Positions 4,460-14,486 are shown, counted from the first letter of the stretch. The stretch is DNA of 64,000 bases from an uncultured Planctomycetaceae bacterium (GCA_937952415.1 CALFYT010000076.1:5733-69732); one strand, 5' to 3'. The notes: a model not told the origin generated them from the letters alone. Numbers and translations: made by a program.

Positions 4460-4640
4460 GTGGCCGACGCGACGGGTTGTCCCTGTCCGCAACGTGCAAA
4501 GCAGGCTCGTTGACCCGCCCCCGCAGAACCGAGTCTCGGCCGAGCGCTGGCGAGTGCGGATTGGATCGGCGGCACGCGCATCGGTCGATTCATGGCAGTT
4601 GCCGCGGCGTTCGATCCGGCATCTGAACGGGAAAACCCAC

Positions 4641-5660
4641 ATGGCATTGCGGCTGATGCAGATCTTCGTTCCCAAAGGTTCTGGCGAGAAGTCCGACAAG
4701 CTGCTCGAAGGCCGGGAAGTGTTGGGTCGGTGGCGCGACACGCAAACTGACCAGACCGTGCTGCACCTGCTGGTGCCGGTCGAAGAAACCGAGCCGATCA
4801 TGGACGAGTTCGAGCAGGCGTATTCCAGCACGGAGGGGTTTCACGTCGTGCTGTTTCCGGTCGAGGCCGTGCTGCCGCGTCCTCAAGCAAAGAGCGACCG
4901 AGAAGAAGCCTCGCAGCCAGACGAAACGGAACGCGCCAAAGAATCGCAGCGGATCAGTCGCGAAGAACTTTACAACGAAGTCGTTGAGGGACTGGGCGTC
5001 TCGCGCGTATTCGTCGGCATGACGATTCTGGCCGCGGTGGTGGCGGCCATCGGGCTAATGCGCGACGACGTGGTTGTTATCATCGGCGCTATGGTCATGG
5101 CCCCATTGTTGGGACCCAACGTCGCCATGGCGTTTGCGACAACGCTAGGCGACATCGATCTGCTGCGCCGTGGCCTGGTGACGAACTTTGTTGGTGTCGC
5201 GCTGACGTTTCTGTTTTCAATCGCGGTGGGCTATTTCTTCTATGTCGATCCCGAGGTACCGGCCATTGCCTCCCGGACTCAACTGGCTGCGGGCGATATT
5301 CTCCTGGCGCTGGCGGCCGGAACCGCCGGCACGCTGGCCCTAACGCGCGGGCTGTCGACCGCCGTGATCGGCGTGATGGTCGCCGTTGCCCTGGTGCCGC
5401 CGCTGGTCACGGCCGGCTTGCTGTTTGGTGCGGGTCAACCGACACTCGGCACGCGCGCATTGCTGTTGACCGGCGCCAACGTGATCTGTGTGAATCTGGC
5501 CGGCATCGTGACCTTGTTAGCGCAAGGCGTGCGCCCGCGCAATTGGTGGGAGGCGAAGCGCGCCAAGTCGGCAACGTACAAGGCGACGATCGTTTGGGCG
5601 ATCCTGCTCATCCTGCTGGTGGTGATCCTTGCGGTGGGGCGGGTCGGCGTAACCCGCTAG
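4641..5660 (+). CDS. DUF389 / TIGR00341-family integral membrane protein
   Basis: Start MALRLMQIFVPKG, a soluble N-domain, then ~6 hydrophobic helices (GAMVMAPLLGPNVAMAF...). The upstream part of ORF 4494.. is Arg-rich and unlikely to be coding. Confidence 0.75.
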   Translation: MALRLMQIFVPKGSGEKSDKLLEGREVLGRWRDTQTDQTVLHLLVPVEETEPIMDEFEQAYSSTEGFHVVLFPVEAVLPRPQAKSDREEASQPDETERAKESQRISREELYNEVVEGLGVSRVFVGMTILAAVVAAIGLMRDDVVVIIGAMVMAPLLGPNVAMAFATTLGDIDLLRRGLVTNFVGVALTFLFSIAVGYFFYVDPEVPAIASRTQLAAGDILLALAAGTAGTLALTRGLSTAVIGVMVAVALVPPLVTAGLLFGAGQPTLGTRALLLTGANVICVNLAGIVTLLAQGVRPRNWWEAKRAKSATYKATIVWAILLILLVVILAVGRVGVTR

Positions 5661-5696: not shown

Positions 5697-6830
5697 CTAA
5701 GCTCCCGTTCTTGTCCCTGTCGATTCCGCACTTGCATGTTCTTGAGGATGAGGATCGGCACCTGAGTCGTTGGAACCGATCCACCCTTTCTTCCAAAAGA
5801 AGGCAAGCATGGCCGCCGCGACGACGAGCATAGTCGTCCAAATGATTGGATAGGCCCACCAAACGTGCAATTCCGGCATGTGCTCGAAATTCATGCCGTA
5901 AATGCCCGCCAAGAACGTGAGTGGAATGAAGATCGTGGCGACAATCGTAAGTACCTTCATCACTTCGTTGGTTCGGTTGGCGATGGAGGAAAGGTACGTA
6001 TTCATCAGGCCAGTCACCATCTCGCGATACATTTCGGTTACTTCCGAGGCTTGCACGCAATGGTCGTACGTGTCGCGCAAGAAAACGCGCACCTTGGGAT
6101 CGATCAGAGGATGTTCTTCGCGGGCCAACTTGGTGGCCGCTTCGCGTTGCGGCCAGATCGCGCGGCGGATCCTGTGCAACTGGTTCTTGATTCGGTTGAG
6201 GTCCTTGATCAAGTTCGGCGTCGGACGTTCGACAACGGCCTCTTCGAGCTGTTCCAGATAGTTGCCGATCTCTTCGAGCTTCGGGTAGTACTCATCGATG
6301 ATCGTGTCGAAGATGGCATAGGCGACATAGGCCGGTCCCTCGTGGCGGATGCGGCCTTTGCCGGAACGGATCCTGTTGCGCACAGGATCCAGCACGTCGC
6401 CGTAGCGCTCTTGGAACGTGAGCACGTAGTCATTGCCCAGGACGATGCTCACTTGCTCTAGATCGACGTGGTTCGGCCGTGCGGAATGAATCATCCGAGC
6501 AATGATCAGCATTTGCTCATCATAGGGTTCGGCCTTGGGTCGCTGTGGTACGTTCACCACGTCTTCGATTGCTAGCGGATGAAGTGAGAAGATGCTGCCA
6601 ATCTTCTTAATCAACTTCTCGTCGCCGAATCCTTGAATATCGACCCAAGTGATCGTATCGGGACTGTGTGCCGCCTGCAGTGAATCGGGATCCGTAACGT
6701 CTTCTTCCTTGAGGTCGCCGGGTGTGAAGTGCATGACGCGGATCTTAGTCGGCGGAGAATCTTCCTTGATGACCAATGTTCCTGGCCGCGCACCCGCTTT
6801 CGGATGTCGTTTGCTGAAGATCGTAAGCAT
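5697..6830 (-). CDS. corA: CorA-family Mg2+/Co2+ channel
   Basis: YGMNFEHMPEL (GMN motif) between two C-terminal TM helices. Long cytoplasmic N-domain. Confidence 0.9.
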   Translation of the reverse strand: MLTIFSKRHPKAGARPGTLVIKEDSPPTKIRVMHFTPGDLKEEDVTDPDSLQAAHSPDTITWVDIQGFGDEKLIKKIGSIFSLHPLAIEDVVNVPQRPKAEPYDEQMLIIARMIHSARPNHVDLEQVSIVLGNDYVLTFQERYGDVLDPVRNRIRSGKGRIRHEGPAYVAYAIFDTIIDEYYPKLEEIGNYLEQLEEAVVERPTPNLIKDLNRIKNQLHRIRRAIWPQREAATKLAREEHPLIDPKVRVFLRDTYDHCVQASEVTEMYREMVTGLMNTYLSSIANRTNEVMKVLTIVATIFIPLTFLAGIYGMNFEHMPELHVWWAYPIIWTTMLVVAAAMLAFFWKKGWIGSNDSGADPHPQEHASAESTGTRTGA

Positions 6831-6932
6831 GCGTAGCCTTGTTGTTCAGGAGGTGCGCCGTCGTTGCGCAGGCGGTGCGATTTCACAAAGGTCCGCGCAG
6901 GGTTGCTGCCGAGTCGCGGAGCAATGCTTCCC

Positions 6933-8066
6933 TTATGGCTCCGTCCACTCTCCGAGGTATGCGGCCAACACGTGACTCCATTCGGGGCTTCCGGTTGTCC
7001 GCAGCAGCACTTGGTTGATCGGTTCACGCAGCGGACTGTTGCTCGGCAGGGCAAACGCGTAAGACTGCGGCTCGAAAGTCACAGGCAGGACGTGTATCTC
7101 GCCGGGAAAGAGCTGAGGCGATTCGTGACGCAGAATCGTCGCATCGTAGACCACTGCATCAACTTCGTCTGCTTGCAGTGCAGACAGCGCGGATCGAACG
7201 TCGGGGTGCTTCGCGGCGATGATATGACGAGATCGCAAGTATTCGTCACTCGTCGATTCCGAAACCGTGGCCACGCGCACGCGCGATAGATCGGCAGGCC
7301 CGGCAATTCGGGATTTCAGTTGCGTCACGGTGAGTGCGGACGTAACCGCTGCGGTAAAACTCGCGATGACGAACAGCCCGGAGAACATCCAGATGCATGC
7401 GATGATTCGCCCGCCTGCGGACTTAGGCACTTTGTCCCCGTATCCAACCGTCGTCATCGTGACGGCTGCCCACCAGGTGCCGGATGCAATTCCTTTGGTC
7501 ATCCCACCGCCGAAGCTTGGATTCTGCTTGCGTTCGAAGAAGTATACGGCCACGCCGCTGGACAAAAGCACCGCGAGCAAGCCCGCCATCACCTTAATGA
7601 AAGTGGAGGAGAATACCGCCGACACCACCCGATCCCATCCACGAACCCGCCGGCCACTGACAGCGATTCCAAGGCCGGAGCTATGGAACGGATGGGTGAA
7701 ATCCATTCGCTTCTCGCGATCGTAGTTGACTGTCAAAGCAGCGGCTGCCAAATCCACGTCTCCGCGCTCAACCGCGTCGAGCATTTCATCCAGTTCCATC
7801 ACCTTGAACTTCAAGTCGATTTCATGGTCGGCCTCGCGTTCGAGATCGGCCTTGACCTCGCGCAGCAAGTCCACGCTGATCCCAATCCACTGTCCCTCAT
7901 CGTTTTGCATGGAAAAGGGAGGGACTTCTCGAGTGGCAACGACTACCTGCTTTGGATGGATGGCATCTTCCTGAGCCGACGCCGCCAGCGGTAGCATGCA
8001 TACCAGTGCGGTCGCCCACACGCAGCGAATCCCTAGTCCGCAACTGCCGCGCATTCTGATTCCCAT
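6933..8066 (-). CDS. GluR0-type ligand-gated K+ channel (periplasmic binding-protein lobes S1/S2 interrupted by M1-P-M2 pore)
   Basis: Signal peptide. SBP type-3-like lobes on both sides of two TM helices. Pore loop WWAAVTMTTVGYGDKVP carries the canonical TVGYGD K+ filter. Confidence 0.85.
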   Translation of the reverse strand: MGIRMRGSCGLGIRCVWATALVCMLPLAASAQEDAIHPKQVVVATREVPPFSMQNDEGQWIGISVDLLREVKADLEREADHEIDLKFKVMELDEMLDAVERGDVDLAAAALTVNYDREKRMDFTHPFHSSGLGIAVSGRRVRGWDRVVSAVFSSTFIKVMAGLLAVLLSSGVAVYFFERKQNPSFGGGMTKGIASGTWWAAVTMTTVGYGDKVPKSAGGRIIACIWMFSGLFVIASFTAAVTSALTVTQLKSRIAGPADLSRVRVATVSESTSDEYLRSRHIIAAKHPDVRSALSALQADEVDAVVYDATILRHESPQLFPGEIHVLPVTFEPQSYAFALPSNSPLREPINQVLLRTTGSPEWSHVLAAYLGEWTEP

Positions 8067-8111
8067 CGAGTTAATTGTTGATCCGCTCTGAGGTTTTGCG
8101 CCCAGTATCCG

Positions 8112-9230
8112 TCACTCCCCCAGATACCGAAACACCAGTTCGTCCCAACTATCGCTGGCGCGAAAACGGAGCAGCGCGTCGTTAAGTGGTTTTCTCAATG
8201 GGTCGTCCGGCCGCAGCGCGATGGCGTATTCCTGCTCGTTGAACGACAACGCTAGCACCTGAATGCTGTCCGAGAATTCCGTGTTGGCCAAGAACTTCAA
8301 AAGGGCCTCGTCATAGACGGCCGCGTCCGCGCGTCCGCCGGTGAGCTCCTCCAGCGCAGCCTCTGCGGTCGCGCGCGTTTGAAAGCCAATGCGGCGGCGG
8401 CGCAAGTAATCCGCGCTGGTGCTCGACTCAACTGTCACGACCCGAACGTGATGAAGATCCGTCGGATGCGAAAGACCGGTTTCAAGTTGCTTCACGGTTA
8501 GCACCGATGTGATGACGCCGGTCAGGAGCGACAACAGCAGAATGCTGGCGATCATGGAACACGCGGCGACGATACGACCCAACACACCGACGGGGAAAAT
8601 CCCCTTGTGGCCAAGTAGCAACACGGTAGACCACCAGACGCCCACACCTATGCCCTGACGCCTCCCGCCGCCGAAGGTGCTTTCGTTCGGCTTACGCTCG
8701 ACGAGCCAAAACAGCATGCCACACCCCACGACAACGGCGATCATGACAGCAACGATCGCCAGCAAACGAGCCGAGACAATGCGGCGCAGCAACGACATAT
8801 TGCTCGTTCCATTGGTGACCGACACCGCGACCCCCAGCCCGGTCGTAAAATGCGGATGGCAAAAGTCAACTCGCCGGTGCCGATCAGCCGTGACACTGAT
8901 TGCGGCAACGGCTACGTCGAGTTCTCCGGACTCCAGTCCCGCAAGCATCTGGTCCAACGTCAGCTCGCGCAACTCGTATTCCAGGTTCAACTCGTCCGTA
9001 AGGTGCTTCCACATTTCAATGCTGATGCCCGCCCATTGACCATCTGGGTTCTTAAAGGCAAATGGCGGGCTGTGCTTCGTGCCGACGATCAGCTTGGTAT
9101 CGGGCGTGTCGGCGGCGGTCTCGACGTCGTCGCTGCCCACGGCCGTCGCTGAAAGCACGATCAGAACAACACCAACGATGGTGGGTCGACAGACGAATTT
9201 CAGTAACTGCCGCATGAAACCGTCAGCCAT
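8112..9230 (-). CDS. GluR0-type channel paralogue with degenerate selectivity filter
   Basis: Same S1-M1-P-M2-S2 layout as 6933..8066, but the pore loop reads WWSTVLLLGHKGIFPVG (no TVGYG). Confidence 0.8.
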   Translation of the reverse strand: MADGFMRQLLKFVCRPTIVGVVLIVLSATAVGSDDVETAADTPDTKLIVGTKHSPPFAFKNPDGQWAGISIEMWKHLTDELNLEYELRELTLDQMLAGLESGELDVAVAAISVTADRHRRVDFCHPHFTTGLGVAVSVTNGTSNMSLLRRIVSARLLAIVAVMIAVVVGCGMLFWLVERKPNESTFGGGRRQGIGVGVWWSTVLLLGHKGIFPVGVLGRIVAACSMIASILLLSLLTGVITSVLTVKQLETGLSHPTDLHHVRVVTVESSTSADYLRRRRIGFQTRATAEAALEELTGGRADAAVYDEALLKFLANTEFSDSIQVLALSFNEQEYAIALRPDDPLRKPLNDALLRFRASDSWDELVFRYLGE

Positions 9231-9601
9231 CTTGAAGGGGCCGTGCTCAGGTGAATGGTACCGAAGGCGTAGAACGGTCGCGCAAGAGCTGAAACTCAGT
9301 CAACCGTCGCGCGTCCTCGGCGATCTCGATCCGCGGTCGTCCGGCCGCCAAAACGCGCACACAACATAGCGACACGGGCCAAAACGAGCGATAGGAGTCG
9401 GGCGCAATACCCAACTCGTTGGCGGGTCAGAACGCCCGCAGTCGAATGGGAGATGAACGACGTGCAAGCACATCGACTACTCTAAGCGGCCGGGTCGGCT
9501 TGCCGATTGGAACACGACGGCGTCGCGCGCTAGACCGCGGGACGGGCCACGCGTTCGTCGATCGCGGTGCCCGAATCGTATCGTTCGCACGCGGAACCCA
9601 G

Positions 9602-11368
9602 CTACTGTCCCGCGCTCTGCTGAAGTTTGTCCATCACGTCGTCCAGACTGAAGCTGGCCGCTTTCTGGCGCTGTGGAAATTCCTGGAATGTGGCCAGGAA
9701 TTTGCCGACGTACTCCTGCGCCGGCACCAGCAGAAAGGCATGATCGATGAGCCAGTCGTAGTACGAATTCGACGTTACGTCGGCCCGCTCGTACGGATCG
9801 AGCCGCAGGTTGAAAATCTTCGGCAGCCGCAGCGACACGAACGGCTCGGCCCAAATCCGCAGGGTTCCTCGTGCGCGCTGTTCTAGGAACACCAGCTTCC
9901 AGTTGTCGTAGCGTAGTGCCGTAACTTGCTGGTCGTCGTTGCAATAGATAAACGATTCGCGCGGGCTCTCGGCGGCTTGGCCTGTCAGCAGTGGAATCAG
10001 GTTGTAACCGTCTACGTGGACCTTGTAGGTCATGTCGCCGACTTTGTATCCCTTCTTCAGTTTCTCGGCAACGTCCGGATCGCCGGCGATGGCCAGAAGC
10101 GTGGGCAGCCAGTCGTGGTGGGCGACGATTTCATTCGAGACCTTGCCCGGCGTGATCTGGCCTGGCCAGCGAACCATGCAGGGCACGCGGTAAGCGCCTT
10201 CCCAATTCGAGTTCTTCTCGTTGCGGAAGGGGGTCATGGCGGCGTCGGGCCAGGAGTTCATGTGCGGCCCGTTGTCGGTCGAGTACATGACAAACGTATT
10301 GTCGGCCACCCCGGCGTCGTCGAGCGCCTTGAGCACCGTGCCGACGTTCTTATCGTGGTCGATCATGGCGTCGGCATACTCGCTCATCCATCGGCCGGAT
10401 TGGCCCTTGCTCTCGGGCTTGACGTGCGTGCGGAAGTGCATGTGCGTGAAATTGACCCACACGAAAAACGGCTTGCCCGCTTTGGCCTGCCGCTCGATGA
10501 AGTCGGCGGCCCGATTGGCGACGTCGTCGTCGATCGTTTCCATCCGCTTCTTGGTCAGCGGGCCGGTATCTTCGATGGTCTGCTTGCCGACTCGGCCGAA
10601 GCGCGGATCGACCGTATCGTCGTCTTTCTCGCTTGCCTTGCAGTCCAGCACGCCCCGCGGGCCATACTTCGCGCGGAACGCCGGATCCTTTGGATAGTCG
10701 GGATGTTCGGGCTCTTCCTCGGCATTCAAGTGATAGAGGTTGCCGTAAAACTCGTCGAACCCGTGAACGGTCGGCAGGAACTCATTGCGATCGCCCAGGT
10801 GGTTCTTGCCAAACTGGCCGGTCACGTAGCCCAGCGGCTTGAGCAATACGGCGATCGTGGGGTCTTCCTTGCGCAAGCCCAACGTGGCGCCCGGCAGGCC
10901 GACTTTGGTCAACCCGGTGCGCAGCCCGTGCTGTCCGGTGATAAACGACGCGCGGCCGGCCGTGCAACTCTGTTCGGCGTAGTAGTCGGTAAACATCAGC
11001 CCTTCGCGGGCGACGCGATCGATATTGGGCGTGCGATAGCCCATCAAGCCGAGGGTGTACGCGCTGACGTTCGATTGCCCGATGTCGTCGCCCCAGATGA
11101 TGCAGATGTTCGGCTTCTTGCCCGACGCCCGCGACTGGGCGGCGACGTTTTGATTGAAGGCGGCCAGGGCGAGCAGCTCGTCTTTTTGCAATCCGGTACC
11201 ACAGCCATCAGCCGGCGTACACGATGACCGAGAAAGTTCGGCTGCCTCGATGGTCGCAGGTGCCGTCGCATCGGCGCCCGGACTAAACGCGTTGCCCACA
11301 GCCACGAATACGAACAATGCGGTGACGCAAAGGCAGAGCATAATCATCCGCCAGGCGGGTAAGGTCAT
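9602..11368 (-). CDS. Arylsulfatase (formylglycine-dependent sulfatase)
   Basis: ATG 11368 preceded by GGAG. Signal/TM MTLPAWRMIMLCLCVTALFVFVAV. NICIIWGDDIG metal site. SCTAGRASFITGQ matches the C-x-(A/P)-x-R formylglycine motif. The upstream 164 codons of ORF 9602..11860 overlap the next gene and are Arg/Thr-rich. Confidence 0.9.
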   Translation of the reverse strand: MTLPAWRMIMLCLCVTALFVFVAVGNAFSPGADATAPATIEAAELSRSSCTPADGCGTGLQKDELLALAAFNQNVAAQSRASGKKPNICIIWGDDIGQSNVSAYTLGLMGYRTPNIDRVAREGLMFTDYYAEQSCTAGRASFITGQHGLRTGLTKVGLPGATLGLRKEDPTIAVLLKPLGYVTGQFGKNHLGDRNEFLPTVHGFDEFYGNLYHLNAEEEPEHPDYPKDPAFRAKYGPRGVLDCKASEKDDDTVDPRFGRVGKQTIEDTGPLTKKRMETIDDDVANRAADFIERQAKAGKPFFVWVNFTHMHFRTHVKPESKGQSGRWMSEYADAMIDHDKNVGTVLKALDDAGVADNTFVMYSTDNGPHMNSWPDAAMTPFRNEKNSNWEGAYRVPCMVRWPGQITPGKVSNEIVAHHDWLPTLLAIAGDPDVAEKLKKGYKVGDMTYKVHVDGYNLIPLLTGQAAESPRESFIYCNDDQQVTALRYDNWKLVFLEQRARGTLRIWAEPFVSLRLPKIFNLRLDPYERADVTSNSYYDWLIDHAFLLVPAQEYVGKFLATFQEFPQRQKAASFSLDDVMDKLQQSAGQ

Positions 11369-11438
11369 GGTGTTTCTCCTCGATGATCTGGCAAGAACGT
11401 GAATCGTTGTCGGTTGCGTTACGGCGGTTGGGACGGCG

Positions 11439-12311
11439 CTAAAGTTGTTCGTACGGCATCTCGAACAACCGATCCAGTTTTCCAAGATCGCCGGTTTGCA
11501 GTCCCTGACGGAACCAGCGTACGCGCTGTTCCGACGTGCCGTGGGTATAGTTTTCTGGCGAGGTAAAACCCCGTGAGCGGCGCTGCAGCCGGTCGTCGCC
11601 GATTGCGTTGGCCGACGTGATCGCCGCTTCGATGTCGCCCGGCTCGATGAATCGAAATCGCTGCTGGCCGTGATGGGCCCAGACTCCGGCCAGGTAGTCG
11701 GCCTGCAGTTCGAGCCGCACCGACATCCGGTTTCCGGCGGCCTTGGACGAGGACCGCCGCTCGCGCGTGACCAGGTCGCTGTAACCCAACAGGTTCTGCA
11801 CGTGATGGCCCACCTCGTGAGCAATAACGTAAGCCTGTGAGAACTCGGCCTTGGAGCCACCTAGCTTGCGATCCAGCTCTTCGAAAAAGGTCGGGTCGAG
11901 ATAGACGGTTTTGTCCACGGGACAATAGAACGGGCCGACCGCCGACGGCGCCACGCCGCAGCCTGTCCGAACCGCGTCGGAAAACAGCACCATGCGGGGT
12001 GGCTGGTAGCGCTCGCCTGCCCGGCGAAATTGTTCGTCCCACACGATTTCGGTGAACCGCAACACAGTCGCGGTAAATTCGCGCTGCTTTTGCTCCTCGG
12101 CGGTCGGAGCTCGCTGCTCGCCCTGTTGGCCTTGGTTCTGACCAACCTGTGCTTGACCCACAAGTTGGTTCACAATCTGGGGATCGACACCAAAGACGAG
12201 ACTGAGGATCAGCACCAGCAGCAGACCGCCGCCGCCCAGCGCGACGCCCTTTCGCCCCATCTGACGCCGATCTTCCAGGTTCCTGCTCTGTTGTCCACCG
12301 CGCCACCGCAT
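11439..12311 (-). CDS. YpfJ-like neutral zinc metallopeptidase (PF04228-like)
   Basis: N-terminus MRWRGGQQSRNLEDRR followed by a TM helix. HEVGHH zinc motif. Confidence 0.85.
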   Translation of the reverse strand: MRWRGGQQSRNLEDRRQMGRKGVALGGGGLLLVLILSLVFGVDPQIVNQLVGQAQVGQNQGQQGEQRAPTAEEQKQREFTATVLRFTEIVWDEQFRRAGERYQPPRMVLFSDAVRTGCGVAPSAVGPFYCPVDKTVYLDPTFFEELDRKLGGSKAEFSQAYVIAHEVGHHVQNLLGYSDLVTRERRSSSKAAGNRMSVRLELQADYLAGVWAHHGQQRFRFIEPGDIEAAITSANAIGDDRLQRRSRGFTSPENYTHGTSEQRVRWFRQGLQTGDLGKLDRLFEMPYEQL

Positions 12312-12488: not shown

Positions 12489-14486
12489 TCAGTTCAATCG
12501 CTCAAACGTAAGTCCCGGGTCGGAAGGCGGCGCACCGCTCAGGGCGAATTGCCACTTGTCCGGGCCCAGCGACTTGACCGAACCGGCCATCGCGCCGTGA
12601 TCGGCGCTCTGCAATACCAACTCATCGCTGGTCGCGGCGAGATCTCCGTTGAGCTCGGTCGCCGGCTTGCCCGGTTGAGCGGCCTTCCACGAAAACTGCG
12701 AGTCGTCGGTGATCGTCAGATCGATGGTCGTATCGCCGGCCTTGGCCTGCCACGAGCCGACCAGATCGGTCTCGGGCGCATCAGCGCCAGCCGGAGTGTC
12801 CGCCGGCGGTGCCGACGGTTCGGCCGGTGCAAGTGCGTCGAGCATGCGCTTGGCCGTGGTATCCTTCGGCTGGTCGCGGACGACAACCTTTAGGGCGTTG
12901 ACCGCGTCGTCCTTCGCACCGATCACCAAATACTGATAGGCAAGCACGAAATACGCCGAGGCATCGTCCGGGTGCTCGCCACAGAATTGCTCCAGCTTGC
13001 GGAGTTGGGCCTGATACTCGTCCGTGTTGCCGTACAGGCTGCTCATCGTTGTCCAGTCCATCCCCGGCGCGCTGGAAAGAAACGAATTGAGCGCGGCCGC
13101 CGCCGACTTGTACTCGCCCAGGGCGAACAACGTGACGGCCCGAACCTCGTGGACGACCGGATCACCCGGCAGTTTTTCCAGTGCCGCGTCGAACTTCGCC
13201 AGCGCGCCGCGATAGTCGCTCGCCTTGAACAGCGCCAGCCCTTCGTCGAACAGCTTCGTGGCTTGCTCCGTTTCGGGGCTCTCGGCCGCAGCTTCCGCCG
13301 ACGCACCCGCAGCGTCCGCATCGGACGAAACATAGTTGTTCACCACGACCGGTTGCGAATAGTCGTACGGCGCCGATTCAGCGTAGTACGGGTTGTAGTA
13401 CTCCGTACCGTAACCCCAGGCGCTGGTCAGCGCACCGAGGCCCCAGCCGACCGCGCCCCACGCGAGCGGCGCATACCAATTGCTGCCCCAATAGCCGTTC
13501 CAGCAGCCGTTGTACCAGCCGTAGTGCGGGCGGATGCAGTTGTTGTGCCAATGGCCGGCCCAACCTCCGCCGCCCCAACCCCAGTCCGGTCGATTCCAAT
13601 TCGGGCGGTCCCAGCCGGGTCGATTCCCGATGACATTTCCACCGCCGATGTTGATGTCGTTGCCAATGTTGATGTTCCCGTCGCCAGGTCGGCCGGGTCT
13701 GTTGCTGCCTGGACGATTGCCTCCGCCGATGATCGGCCGATCGCCGGTTCCGGGGCGGTCTCCTACGCCTGGACGACCTCCGGGTCGATCCCCGCCGATC
13801 GTTGGTCGATCACCGGTGCCCGGTCGATTGCCGCCAGGACGGTTCCCGGGTCCGCCGGGCAATGGCGTCGGCCGGCTCACGTTGCCCAGGCTCGGACGAT
13901 CGCCGCCGCCTGGACGGTTGCCTTGACCAGTTCCCGCACCCTGTCCAGGTCGGGTGCCCGGAGTTGGCCGATTGACGCCGGCACTGGGCCGAGTGCCGGG
14001 GCTTGGGCGGTTGGCGTTGCCGCCTCCGCCGCTGGGCAGCGTCGGCCGGGTCGGTTGCACTCCGCCTGACGGGCGCACCGAGGAACGATTGGCCGTGCCG
14101 CTTCCACTGGGGCGCGTGGTAGGTCGAGAAGTACTTGGCCGGCCACCCGAGGGATGAAACGAATTGCCGGCCGACGGTCGCGATGCCGTGTTCGGTCGCG
14201 ACGCGCCGCTAGGACGCGAGGCGTGACCCATCGAGGGCCGACTCGTGCTGGGCCGCGAGGGGCGCGCGTGCGAGGCCGAACGATTGTACCCGCCGCTGTG
14301 GCCCATTGACGGTCGCCCGCCTCCTCCTCCAACGCGCCCCATCGACGGTCGTGCGCCGCCACCGCGTCCACCCCCGCCTCGGCCGCCGCCGCCACGGCCA
14401 CCTCGGGCCGAGACATCGTCCGACCAGGCAATCAGGCAGCCAAGCATCACGAACAGCGCGAGCACCGACTTGCAGAGCGATTTCAT
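12489..14486 (-). CDS. Secreted protein: Gly/Arg/Pro low-complexity region + Trp/Tyr/Gly-rich segment + TPR domain + small C-terminal beta domain
   Basis: Signal peptide MKSLCKSVLALFVMLGCLIAWS. RGGGGRGGGG, RPS and GNRPG repeats. WGWGGGGWAGHWHNN...YYNPYY segment. TPR-like helices (ATKLFDEGLALFKASDYRGALAKFDAALE...). Confidence 0.75.
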   Translation of the reverse strand: MKSLCKSVLALFVMLGCLIAWSDDVSARGGRGGGGRGGGGRGGGARPSMGRVGGGGGRPSMGHSGGYNRSASHARPSRPSTSRPSMGHASRPSGASRPNTASRPSAGNSFHPSGGRPSTSRPTTRPSGSGTANRSSVRPSGGVQPTRPTLPSGGGGNANRPSPGTRPSAGVNRPTPGTRPGQGAGTGQGNRPGGGDRPSLGNVSRPTPLPGGPGNRPGGNRPGTGDRPTIGGDRPGGRPGVGDRPGTGDRPIIGGGNRPGSNRPGRPGDGNINIGNDINIGGGNVIGNRPGWDRPNWNRPDWGWGGGGWAGHWHNNCIRPHYGWYNGCWNGYWGSNWYAPLAWGAVGWGLGALTSAWGYGTEYYNPYYAESAPYDYSQPVVVNNYVSSDADAAGASAEAAAESPETEQATKLFDEGLALFKASDYRGALAKFDAALEKLPGDPVVHEVRAVTLFALGEYKSAAAALNSFLSSAPGMDWTTMSSLYGNTDEYQAQLRKLEQFCGEHPDDASAYFVLAYQYLVIGAKDDAVNALKVVVRDQPKDTTAKRMLDALAPAEPSAPPADTPAGADAPETDLVGSWQAKAGDTTIDLTITDDSQFSWKAAQPGKPATELNGDLAATSDELVLQSADHGAMAGSVKSLGPDKWQFALSGAPPSDPGLTFERLN
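13590..14405 (-). repeat. Coding low-complexity repeat tract (RGGGG / RPSxG / GNRPG / GDRP units)
   Basis: Approximate bounds. The DNA is dominated by reiterated ccgcc/ggtcg motifs. All three frames on both strands give long spurious Pro/Arg/Gly ORFs here. Confidence 0.6.

Follow-up and report, generated by a model that had tools for sequence, protein, structure and literature searches.

Three adjacent genes on the minus strand of the 64,000-nucleotide stretch of DNA analysed here (the window), in the order A, B and corA, belong to a conserved planctomycete ion-channel module that is most likely expressed as one transcript beginning upstream of position 9230. Our overall reading, which we hold at close to evenly balanced confidence, is that the module encodes a co-expressed amino-acid-gated subunit pair, probably heteromeric, that is tied to Mg2+ and K+ homeostasis. 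Its components carry different weight: there is good reason to believe that A, B and corA act together, a heteromer of A and B is a serious candidate that falls somewhat short of probable, and the proposed logic of K+/Mg2+ coupling lies on the unlikely side. The locus is laid out as follows.

9231..9601, minus strand: non-coding stretch from the upstream sulfatase gene to gene A (371-nt gap)
8112..9230, minus strand: gene A, GluR0-type subunit with an alternative pore signature (372 aa, pore WWSTVLLLGHKG)
8067..8111, minus strand: A-B spacer (45 nt; 57 nt if B begins at its fifth codon)
6933..8066, minus strand: gene B, predicted canonical GluR0-type amino-acid-gated K+ channel subunit (377 aa, pore TMTTVGYGD)
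6831..6932, minus strand: B-corA spacer (102 nt)
5697..6830, minus strand: corA, Mg2+/Co2+ channel gene (377 aa)

The gaps of 45 and 102 nt between the genes are as first reported, and a public gene call (P0121) starts B four codons later, giving a protein of 373 aa and an A-B gap of 57 nt. No terminator-like hairpin is present in either the A-B (45 nt) or the B-corA (102 nt) gap, and the B-corA spacer has no Rfam match. From its position, the stretch 9231..9601 is presumed to hold the promoter and leader of the A-B-corA unit; a search of it found no sigma-70-like site and no Rfam family match. The region is recovered at a word share of 0.97-1.00 in three independent biofilter-metagenome DNA runs, which rules out a one-off assembly artefact. 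Public records label proteins of the A and B types as ABC-transporter substrate-binding proteins, an annotation that hides them from channel surveys.

The A-B-corA arrangement recurs across the Planctomycetia. A K+-filter GluR0 gene adjoins A in 30 of 38 A loci, 26 of them in the order A then B, while corA is adjacent in 18 of the 38, and the A-B pairing spans the Pirellulales and Planctomycetales with six complete genomes among its carriers. The A-B junction measures -4, 1, 1, 4, 4, 31 and 140 nt in the called genes of relatives and lies between -4 and +4 nt in five of eight called gene pairs; two relatives have B-corA junctions of 32 and 83 nt. Larger arrays in relatives read MscK, PP2C-cNMP, A, B, CorA, MgtE, or have CorC/CNNM added, and MgtE, CNNM/CorC, an MscK-like channel and PP2C-cNMP are recurrent members of these same arrays. 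The distance matrices of A, B and CorA co-vary with r of 0.82-0.84, the A-B value being no higher than that for A-CorA. The recurrent arrangement, the gaps free of terminator-like hairpins and the co-varying distances together support the original suggestion of a single transcription unit, and the A, B and corA genes do co-occur in relatives. The tight coupling of the A and B genes favours a physical partnership of the predicted proteins. We found no description of the recurrent GluR0-corA placement in the literature.

The three genes are also found apart. In roughly half of the A-B pairs no Mg2+ transporter gene lies in the vicinity, A lacks a neighbouring GluR0 in six loci (L013, L014, L015, L020, L025 and L027), and in Roseiconus A lies on one contig and B-CorA on another. 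Some B orthologues stand by themselves or have just CorA as partner (L086, L280-L282), corA is likewise next to B at loci that lack A (L086, L087 and L278), and a K-filter GluR0 adjoins CorA in a few loci of Desulfobacterales, Verrucomicrobiota, Acidobacteriota and Phycisphaerae. Neorhodopirellula carries an intact B-CorA pair beside an A remnant that lacks the entire membrane domain. Because B is found without A and one A is gutted, B would be autonomous and A an accessory, and A is predicted to be dispensable to B.

Both B and CorA are orthodox members of their families, with the following landmarks.

7716..7733, minus strand: B S1 ligand-anchor segment T112-V-N-Y-D-R117 (R117 invariant, T112 at least 90% conserved)
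7425..7475, minus strand: B K+ channel signature WWAAVTMTTVGYGDKVP, residues 198-214, containing TMTTVGYGD
7143-7148, minus strand: B Y307-D308 in S2 (Tyr-Asp invariant in 114 orthologues)
5889-5897, minus strand: CorA GMN motif, residues 312-314 (YGMNF, 310-314, between two hydrophobic segments)

In Pfam, B matches SBP_bac_3 (split), Ion_trans_2 (2.5e-14), Lig_chan (5.3e-14) and Lig_chan-Glu_bd, and it has 2450 relatives at E<=1e-10. Its AlphaFold2 model (pLDDT 89.2) contains helices H154-178, H189-204 and H217-250 and ends at residue 377, and the segment from W198 to D211 is nearly all invariant in 114 orthologues. The corA product scores 331.2 bits against TIGR00383 (cut-off 200.75) and 228 bits against Pfam CorA (1.8e-67), and its second C-terminal transmembrane segment comes after the GMN motif; the family model, the GMN motif and two predicted C-terminal transmembrane helices thus mark it as a CorA at the level of sequence.

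Gene A encodes the same succession of elements as B around a different pore.

9153..9212, minus strand: N-terminal hydrophobic helix, residues 7-26, presumed signal peptide (AlphaFold2 H7-13 and H15-26; RQLLKFVCRPTIVGVVLIVL)
8820..9092, minus strand: lobe S1, residues 47-137, aligning to the 2pyy GluR0 ligand-binding core
8880-8897, minus strand: S112-V-T114-A-D-R117 within S1, conserved in orthologues
8697..8771, minus strand: transmembrane helix M1, residues 154-178 (AlphaFold2 H154-178)
8616..8663, minus strand: re-entrant pore helix, residues 190-205, RRQGIGVGVWWSTVLL (AlphaFold2 H190-205, block pLDDT about 78-89)
8586..8615, minus strand: pore loop LGHKGIFPVG, residues 206-215 (MAFFT and AlphaFold2 models)
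8490..8585, minus strand: transmembrane helix M2, residues 216-247, with the gate-region motif LTGVITSVLTV at its end (AlphaFold2 H216-247)
8115..8465, minus strand: lobe S2, residues 256-372, including S270-T271; the chain stops right after the last S2 helix
8310-8315, minus strand: Y306-D307 within S2, invariant in orthologues

Over 335 aa, A and B share 36% identity (E 5e-77). Pfam matches A to SBP_bac_3 (split, 4.8e-26), to Lig_chan-Glu_bd (31.8 bits) and, slightly below the 30.8-bit cut-off, to Lig_chan (30.0 bits); Ion_trans_2 goes unmatched in A, and B alone of the pair matches it. SBP_bac_3 covers residues about 42-372 of each protein with the channel domain inside it, and the best solved relative of both is 2pyy, the Nostoc GluR0 ligand-binding core, which matches both halves of the binding domain in A and in B. 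The AlphaFold2 model of A (pLDDT 87.2) comprises helices H154-178, H190-205 and H216-247 and ends at residue 372 after S2, and its top Foldseek matches are AMPA/NMDA LBD-TMD chains (E about 1e-21, roughly 369-399 columns). In both models the order is signal helix, S1, M1, a 16-residue pore helix, loop, M2 and S2, with nothing beyond S2. Pfam, PDB and AlphaFold2 results therefore agree on the GluR0/iGluR core without a third transmembrane helix that had been proposed for A and B, and A does have a predicted re-entrant helix (residues 190-205) ahead of its pore loop.

The ligand site appears intact in both subunits. Across 106 orthologues of A, T114 and R117 in S1 and S270, Y306 and D307 in S2 never vary, and S112 shows conservation of at least 90%; the anchor pair R117 and D307 of A corresponds to R117 and D308 of B, invariant in 114 orthologues. 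The S1 Arg and S2 Asp are the glutamate anchors of Ger et al. 2010 (PMC2950845). The S1 Arg serves the alpha-carboxylate and the S2 Asp the alpha-amino group of the ligand. Both are present here, and A and B each retain the Arg/Ser-Thr/Asp set for alpha-amino-acid binding. In the M2 gate region of A, T237, G238, S242 and T245 are invariant or nearly so.

The two subunits part at the selectivity filter. The K+ signature T-x-V-G-Y-G is present in B and absent from A, which reads LLLGHKG instead, and the prediction that only the downstream copy keeps it while the upstream pore reads TVLLLGHKG (A residues 202-210; signature at 8592-8636) holds. Since B has this signature and A does not, B is classed by sequence as a strict member of the K+-type GluR0 family and A as a GluR0-like paralogue outside it. 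MAFFT sets WWSTVLL--LGHKGIFP against WWAAVTMTTVGYGDKVP, making the A pore loop two residues shorter, and the AlphaFold2 loops are 10 residues long in A and 12 in B behind pore helices of 16 residues in A and B alike. The motif of A, L-(L/F)-G-(H/N)-K-G, hardly varies among more than 100 orthologues of 43-78% identity: among 106 sequences, G207 and P213 are conserved in all, K209 in 105 (R in one sequence), and position 208 is H in 98 and N in the other 8. This is the best-conserved segment of the protein (0.83), and its DNA motif has one match in the window against 0 expected by chance. A ring of lysines at the pore mouth is an awkward feature for a cation channel.

Conservation of this kind bears directly on whether A is a relic. 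If A were a copy of B in decay, and if the three genes adjoined one another without functional meaning, the missing K+ signature of A and the gutted copy in one relative would be explained; yet more than 100 orthologues have an intact A with a nearly invariant pore loop, and A forms a deep, monophyletic clade on a long branch that is not the sister of B, and evolves no faster than B (mean distance 0.54 versus 0.58), while B lies next to it in 30 of 38 loci and CorA in 18 of 38, in two orders. We regard decay as hardly credible. Literal degeneration of the filter, as a candidate explanation, is contradicted by the conservation data, and the original description of a degenerate filter was wrong: the two-residue-shorter motif is under strong purifying selection. 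As the motif is fixed clade-wide, A would be a specialised subunit rather than a decayed one, and it is very probably functional.

What such a pore might conduct is a separate matter. In the canonical filter, the TVGYG carbonyls together with the Thr hydroxyl form four sites, whereas the TVGDG filter of NaK has only two and no selectivity (PMC8689586). A loop of the length and chemistry found in A cannot make the four K+ sites that TVGYG stacks; as judged from sequence, a pore that includes A should therefore not be classically K+-selective. The suggestion that the locus encodes three cation channels is unproven for A, which has a conserved Lys at its pore mouth.

In another reading, close to the sensor/channel pair that was the second of the original suggestions, A does not conduct at all and is instead a sensor or regulator, binding a periplasmic ligand and modulating B (or CorA) by touching it within the membrane or the ligand-binding layer, with the pore loop of A purely structural. 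A lacks any known selectivity signature, leaves Ion_trans_2 unmatched and is dispensable to B-CorA in some genomes, all of which would suit that role. A plain sensor, however, needs neither a pore loop that is the best-conserved part of the protein nor a conserved M2 gate motif, and structural filler would not keep G-H-K-G fixed over 43-78% overall identity. We consider a non-conducting A improbable, whether it acts on B or on CorA and by either kind of contact.

More weight attaches to the possibility that A and B form two separate homotetramers, opened by the same or by different amino acids and carrying different ions: K+ through B, and through A either non-selective cations, by way of its short filter, or anions, in view of the conserved Lys/His at its cytoplasmic pore mouth. 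From the signal peptide and S1 through M1, the pore helix and the M2 gate motif to S2, A has every element of a complete channel subunit. Either gene is found without its partner in some loci, and the invariance of K209 (R once) with tolerance of H-to-N suggests a charged and polar lining. Single-gene GluR0-like proteins with non-K+ loops exist in Rhizobium, Bradyrhizobium and Group 2 of Ger et al., and short-loop GluR0-like variants also occur in the representative library. Side-by-side channels producing net salt movement or an altered membrane potential would fit the MscK-like and Mg2+ transporter neighbours, and Synechocystis GluR0 acts in volume regulation. Against this stand the conserved gene order and the -4 to +4 nt junction, the usual mark of co-assembling subunits in tetrameric families, and four lysines at a narrow mouth may be unstable without acidic partners such as the aspartate in the GYGD of B. 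This fold is not known to include an anion-selective pore. On balance, separate homotetramers seem rather unlikely.

Under the preferred reading of a co-expressed pair, B would be an orthodox GluR0, its periplasmic two-lobed amino-acid-binding domain split by an M1-pore loop-M2 K+ channel, and able to act alone as a ligand-gated K+ channel. A, as a full-length pore-forming paralogue that keeps the amino-acid-binding residues and the M2 gate region, would be translated together with B and co-assemble with it, the ratio probably being 2:2 by analogy to heteromeric eukaryotic iGluRs, giving a second amino-acid-gated conductance of altered selectivity or rectification beside B homotetramers. CorA would be co-expressed with A-B, joined in relatives by MgtE, CorC/CNNM and an MscK-like channel. 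K+ passing through the GluR0 channels could set the membrane potential and supply counter-charge for Mg2+, periplasmic amino acids being the cue that would join K+ and Mg2+ balance to nutrient supply. A distinctly tentative extension is that this is the first known prokaryotic heteromeric iGluR-type channel, an A2B2 tetramer with two canonical K+ filter strands and two shorter His-Lys ones in alternation, or else that A alone is a non-cation or non-selective pore. If A2B2 is true, the pore would be asymmetric, with selectivity or rectification unlike any homomeric GluR0, and operon-wired to Mg2+ channels.

In textbooks GluR0 connects K+ channels with the glutamate receptors of eukaryotes, and the steps at issue in that history are the loss of the K+ filter and the time at which different subunits began sharing one pore. 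A bacterial clade with a fixed shorter loop in A beside an orthodox K+-filter B offers a tractable natural pair for both questions. For the physiology of bacterial glutamate receptors, the recurrent link to CorA, MgtE, CorC/CNNM and an MscK-like channel suggests a concrete hypothesis, namely that amino-acid sensing is coupled to K+/Mg2+ balance.

Among known systems the closest is GluR0 itself (Synechocystis slr1257; Nostoc punctiforme, PDB 2pyy/1ii5), a glutamate-gated K+ channel of which B shares every sequence-level feature: signal peptide, split SBP_bac_3, M1-P-M2 with TTVGYGD, no third transmembrane helix, and Arg/Thr/Asp anchors. A is like GluR0 in all but the filter, where it has the two-residue-shorter L-L-G-H-K-G loop and no Ion_trans_2 match. 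The filter of A also recalls the non-selective pore-loop channels NaK (TVGDG) and CNG, whose filters are altered or shortened, in that it departs from TVGYG and has a two-residue-shorter strand behind a normal pore helix. CNG channels lack two residues of the K+ signature. NaK and CNG have an acidic filter residue, however, where A has H208-K209, and we take the comparison as a lead on selectivity, with no claim of membership.

Group 2 of Ger et al. 2010 (PMC2950845) is defined by GluR0 topology without a recognisable selectivity filter, a definition that A fits, and the S1 Arg and S2 Asp are conserved in both. Group 2 was drawn from cyanobacteria, Vibrio/Photobacterium, Silicibacter and Magnetospirillum; planctomycetes are absent from it, and the paper makes no statement on gene pairing (PMC2950845). 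Their channel region is poorly conserved, with 2 of 120 positions identical (PMC2950845), whereas the pore loop of A is its best-conserved part, A being compared here with the definition of Group 2 rather than with its sequences. Paired or Mg2+-linked GluR0 goes unmentioned both there and in a 2026 Synechocystis study (PMC13099474), which describes GluR0 as a K+ channel of the plasma membrane that takes part in homeostasis of ions and volume.

Like the heteromeric eukaryotic iGluRs (NMDA GluN1/GluN2, GluA1/GluA2), A and B are two paralogous subunits of one fold with intact amino-acid-binding clefts, and tight co-expression, if it occurs, would permit 2:2 assemblies. Unlike them, A and B lack an N-terminal domain, M4 and the SYTANLAAF motif proper, and B keeps the full K+ filter, as no eukaryotic iGluR does. 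The CorA protein shows nothing unusual; it is the recurrent position of its gene immediately downstream of a GluR0 gene for which we found no earlier account. Published GluR0 is the product of one gene and forms homotetramers, whereas the present module pairs two paralogues and links them to corA.

GluR0 is a prokaryotic glutamate-gated K+ channel, and two genes of this type, A and B, precede corA in the following arrangement:

8112-9230, minus strand: gene A, GluR0-type protein with an LLGHKG pore loop, 372 aa
6933-8066, minus strand: gene B, GluR0-type protein with the K+ filter TMTTVGYGD, 377 aa
5697-6830, minus strand: corA, 377 aa

ORF calls bore out the coordinates and shared strand reported for these genes in the original prediction, with gaps of 45 nt between A and B and 102 nt between B and corA; in a public gene call the start of B lies four codons further in, and the A-B gap would then widen to 57 nt. 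Both A and B match SBP_bac_3, split around the channel insert, and Lig_chan-Glu_bd. Lig_chan is matched by B at 52.7 bits and by A at 30.0 bits, marginally below the 30.8-bit cut-off, while Ion_trans_2, the K+ pore model, is matched by B only and not by A. The two proteins share 36% identity over 335 residues, and the best solved relative of each is the Nostoc GluR0 ligand-binding core (2pyy). The third protein is, on its sequence, an ordinary CorA, scoring 331 bits against TIGR00383 (cut-off 200.75) and carrying YGMNF between two C-terminal hydrophobic segments.

AlphaFold2 models of A (pLDDT 87.2) and B (pLDDT 89.2, built on an alignment of database orthologues) reveal a common plan comprising an N-terminal hydrophobic helix, the ligand-binding lobe S1, transmembrane helix M1 (154-178), a 16-residue pore helix, a loop, transmembrane helix M2 and the second lobe S2, with both proteins ending at S2 and no element beyond. 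The re-entrant pore helix on which the original prediction depended is predicted in A at residues 190-205 and in B at 189-204, and the A model aligns with the LBD-TMD of AMPA/NMDA receptors over approximately 369 columns (E ~1e-21). In S1, a Ser/Thr-x-x-x-x-Arg motif and, in S2, Ser-Thr and Tyr-Asp are conserved in both the A and B families; the S1 Arg and S2 Asp are the glutamate anchors described by Ger et al. 2010 (PMC2950845). The outer end of M2 carries a TS-x-LTV motif in both families as well. On the evidence of sequence and models, A and B are each complete GluR0-type subunits whose amino-acid anchors are intact, and gating would be by periplasmic amino acids.

The two subunits diverge at the filter. 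In B the loop after the pore helix is 12 residues long (TTVGYGDKVPKS), against 10 in A (LGHKGIFPVG); when 171 GluR0-like cores are aligned with MAFFT, A WWSTVLL--LGHKGIFP lies opposite B WWAAVTMTTVGYGDKVP, A keeping the initial Gly of GYG and the final Pro and lacking two residues. More than 100 A orthologues (43-78% identity) were identified in Blastopirellula, Maioricimonas, Stieleria, Gimesia, Polystyrenella, Aureliella, Pirellulimonas, Botrimarina, Rubripirellula and many MAGs, nearly all with LLGHKG. In an alignment of 106 A sequences, G207 and P213 never change, position 209 carries Lys in 105 and Arg in one, position 208 carries His in 98 and Asn in the other eight, and 103 sequences retain G210. 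No other segment of A is as conserved as this loop (0.83 versus 0.66-0.79 elsewhere). This near-invariance, together with a mean pairwise distance for A (0.54) no larger than that for B in the same genomes (0.58), overturns the earlier description of the A filter as degenerate. By sequence, B carries a K+ filter, whereas the loop of A is shorter, basic and conserved, a specialised pore signature rather than the product of decay. Conservation across the 106 sequences likewise led us to reject A as a pseudogene. A recent tandem duplication was also rejected, since the A clade is deep, being monophyletic on a long branch, and the B clade is not its sister. A more divergent A subclade (L211, L229 and L231; 41-49% identity) reads ILFGHKGIFP, ILLGHKGIYP and IFLGHKGVFP, with the K+-filter partner lying upstream of A (B-A order).

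A canonical K+ filter requires five consecutive residues, which form four K+ sites, and the TVGDG filter of NaK has two sites only and is non-selective (PMC8689586); we therefore infer that no pore containing A can be of the classical K+ type. A purely sensory, non-conducting role for A is a reading we consider improbable.

The genomic context of A was assessed in 38 distinct loci, derived from a protein-pattern scan (25), an A-specific DNA motif scan (6), complete or large genomes (6) and the window itself; the motif scan matched 110 stretches, 30 of which encode real A-type proteins, the remainder being fortuitous hits in unrelated taxa. In 30 of the 38 loci A directly adjoins a K+-filter GluR0, in the order A then B in 26 of these and B then A in four. 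Two of the unpaired loci are cut by a contig edge and six have other neighbours, which are unrelated (LRR, SNF2, DUF748, Y-family polymerase), with no alternative partner seen in these A-alone loci. The A-B junction in gene calls measures -4, 1, 1, 4, 4, 31, 45 (the window) and 140 nt. In total 18 of the 38 loci have an adjoining corA, which flanks the A-B pair directly in 17 and A alone in one (L013). Across 15 loci, the distance matrices of A, B and CorA show correlations of r 0.82-0.84 (equal for all three; partial r 0.41-0.52), indicating that the three genes have travelled together; this mirror-tree test detected shared inheritance and no A-B-specific co-variation. In the nearest genome relative (L001/L272; A 74% identical), the A-adjacent B matches only B residues ~21-224 and may be truncated or frameshifted. 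A complete A-type protein (L277:7-1164; WWSVIMLLGNKGVVP; 44% identity to A) also occurs in a MAG labelled Gammaproteobacteria, where the upstream side is cut off and a K+-filter GluR0 lies on another contig (L107); it could have arrived by horizontal transfer, A-type proteins could be more widely distributed, or the contig could be mis-binned.

Co-assembly of A and B into a heteromeric channel with altered selectivity is the reading we tentatively favour, and the close spacing of two genes for paralogous subunits in a tetrameric family argues for it. An obligate complex is argued against by the frequent independence of each gene from the other, and that A and B form separate channels is a somewhat weaker possibility, which we judge rather unlikely. 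In a sample of B orthologues hand-picked from organisms absent from the A list, and hence biased towards B without A, Bythopirellula has B-CorA without A, Roseiconus has B-CorA without an adjoining A (which lies on a separate contig), Rhodopirellula islandica, Blastopirellula sp. J2-11 and one MAG have B alone, and Rubripirellula reticaptiva has the A-B pair. As a rough guide, and an underestimate given the incomplete A list, 29 B orthologues lie on contigs no shorter than 10 kb, and for 15 of these the contig has the same length as that of an A orthologue. Neorhodopirellula lusitana holds an A remnant (L278:3455-3993) at the position A occupies in relatives, with PP2C-cNMP on one side and intact B-CorA on the other; only residues 35-132 and 302-372 are left, the entire membrane domain and part of S2 having been deleted. 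By these genomic patterns, B is autonomous and A accessory. A B-anchored genome scan returned mostly non-planctomycete GluR0s among the matches listed. A few K+-filter GluR0 genes outside Planctomycetia also adjoin corA, such that the GluR0-CorA link is, on gene order, broader than the A-B link.

When all neighbouring ORFs of 43 loci were clustered, the recurrent families were CorA (22 loci), an MscK-like mechanosensitive channel (10 loci) and a PP2C phosphatase carrying a cNMP-binding domain (nine loci), with MgtE, a CNNM/CorC-type transporter and a RimK with a TrkA_C domain each present in four. Three different Mg2+ transport families thus recur, as judged by sequence, beside these GluR0 genes. 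In its long form, exemplified by Stieleria neptunia (L167 1-9119), the array runs MscK, PP2C-cNMP, A, B, CorA, MgtE, with every gene on the same strand. A Planctomycetaceae form is CorC, CorA, B, A, and corA is flanked by the CNNM/CorC-type Mg2+ transporter in Planctomycetaceae and some Pirellulaceae. Extended arrays were noted in L016, L017, L019, L021, L167 and L209, and also in L007, L010, L011 and L012. The RimK-type ATP-grasp protein with TrkA_C adjoins the GluR0 gene or genes in L002, L023, L278 and L281; RimK enzymes are glutamate ligases.

In the window the module takes its minimal A-B-CorA form, with a sulfatase gene on one side and, on the other, a DUF389 gene converging on it. The latter (4494-5660, plus strand; DUF389/TIGR00341 membrane protein) lies 36 nt from the end of corA and did not recur beside the module in the 43 clustered loci. 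The sulfatase ORF (9602-11860, minus strand) is listed as 752 aa with a GTG start; its true start is probably internal, given that ~195 Arg/Pro/Ser-rich residues precede an internal Met and signal-like segment (MTLPAWRMIMLCL...) and the sulfatase domain begins at residue 250. Farther along, a 665-aa ORF (12489-14486, minus strand) has an N-terminal half of extreme Gly/Arg/Pro/Ser/Asn low complexity (GGRGGGG..., RPS... and NRPG... repeats) and an ordinary-looking C-terminal half.

Comparative sequence analysis shows that A, B and corA are inherited together, lie in tight linkage and occur in association with Mg2+ transport genes, and they are probably co-transcribed. Terminator-like hairpins in this region fall only within genes, no sigma-70-like promoter was detected, and an Rfam search matched zero families, Mg2+ riboswitch included. 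A sequencing-run search found the window region in three DNA runs from one biofilter metagenome, at 0.97-1.00 of sampled words, as the only runs with the region, and no RNA runs holding either it or the Blastopirellula marina locus. In a putative functional tie, K+ flux through the GluR0 channels, or their setting of the membrane potential, might accompany Mg2+ movement through CorA or MgtE. Synechocystis GluR0, a plasma-membrane K+ channel of inverted topology, affects volume regulation under KCl upshock, which fits a role in ion homeostasis; this was the only physiological study of any GluR0 found in our literature search (PMC13099474). Synechocystis GluR0 has also been examined by K+-uptake complementation in E. 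coli LB2003.

The same search found no link between GluR0 and CorA, gene pairing or planctomycetes, and no description of the LLGHKG clade, of its conserved pairing with a K+-filter partner, or of an A-B pair embedded among CorA, MgtE, CorC and MscK genes. Database records name A and B orthologues 'Glutamine-binding periplasmic protein precursor', 'Cystine-binding periplasmic protein', 'ABC transporter extracellular-binding protein YckB', 'transporter substrate-binding domain-containing protein' and, once, 'Cyclic nucleotide-gated potassium channel'; none of those found is named as a glutamate-receptor-type channel. The value of the A-B pair hinges on whether it forms a heteromer and with what selectivity.

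Pore-loop remodelling is, by sequence comparison, common across the wider GluR0-like family, in which seven of the 150 top-ranking clusters (50% identity) belong to the A clade. Short loops of differing chemistry in distant relatives (LLTGKVVHP, VIGYNDP, MFGHDDMIP, LIGKNDRHP and LIGYDDEQP, among P0247, P0254, P0264, P0273 and P0353) suggest that the filter has been remodelled repeatedly and independently. Single-gene GluR0-like proteins of Rhizobiales, from Rhizobium/Sinorhizobium (L043, L050, L053, L057, L062, L068, L069, L073) and Bradyrhizobium (L066, L077), include the pore loop AMTQASTGHRG and have full-length, non-K+ loops (for example WWSAEAMTQASTGHRG and WWSTIAMTQAGAAQNA) that are conserved within each genus group. 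B shares with the GluR0 family every feature tested by sequence and structure model. In contrast, A lacks the K+ signature of K+-type GluR0 and is GluR0-like only; it fits the loose definition of 'Group 2' of Ger et al. 2010, a group that includes no planctomycete and in which the channel region is poorly conserved (PMC2950845).
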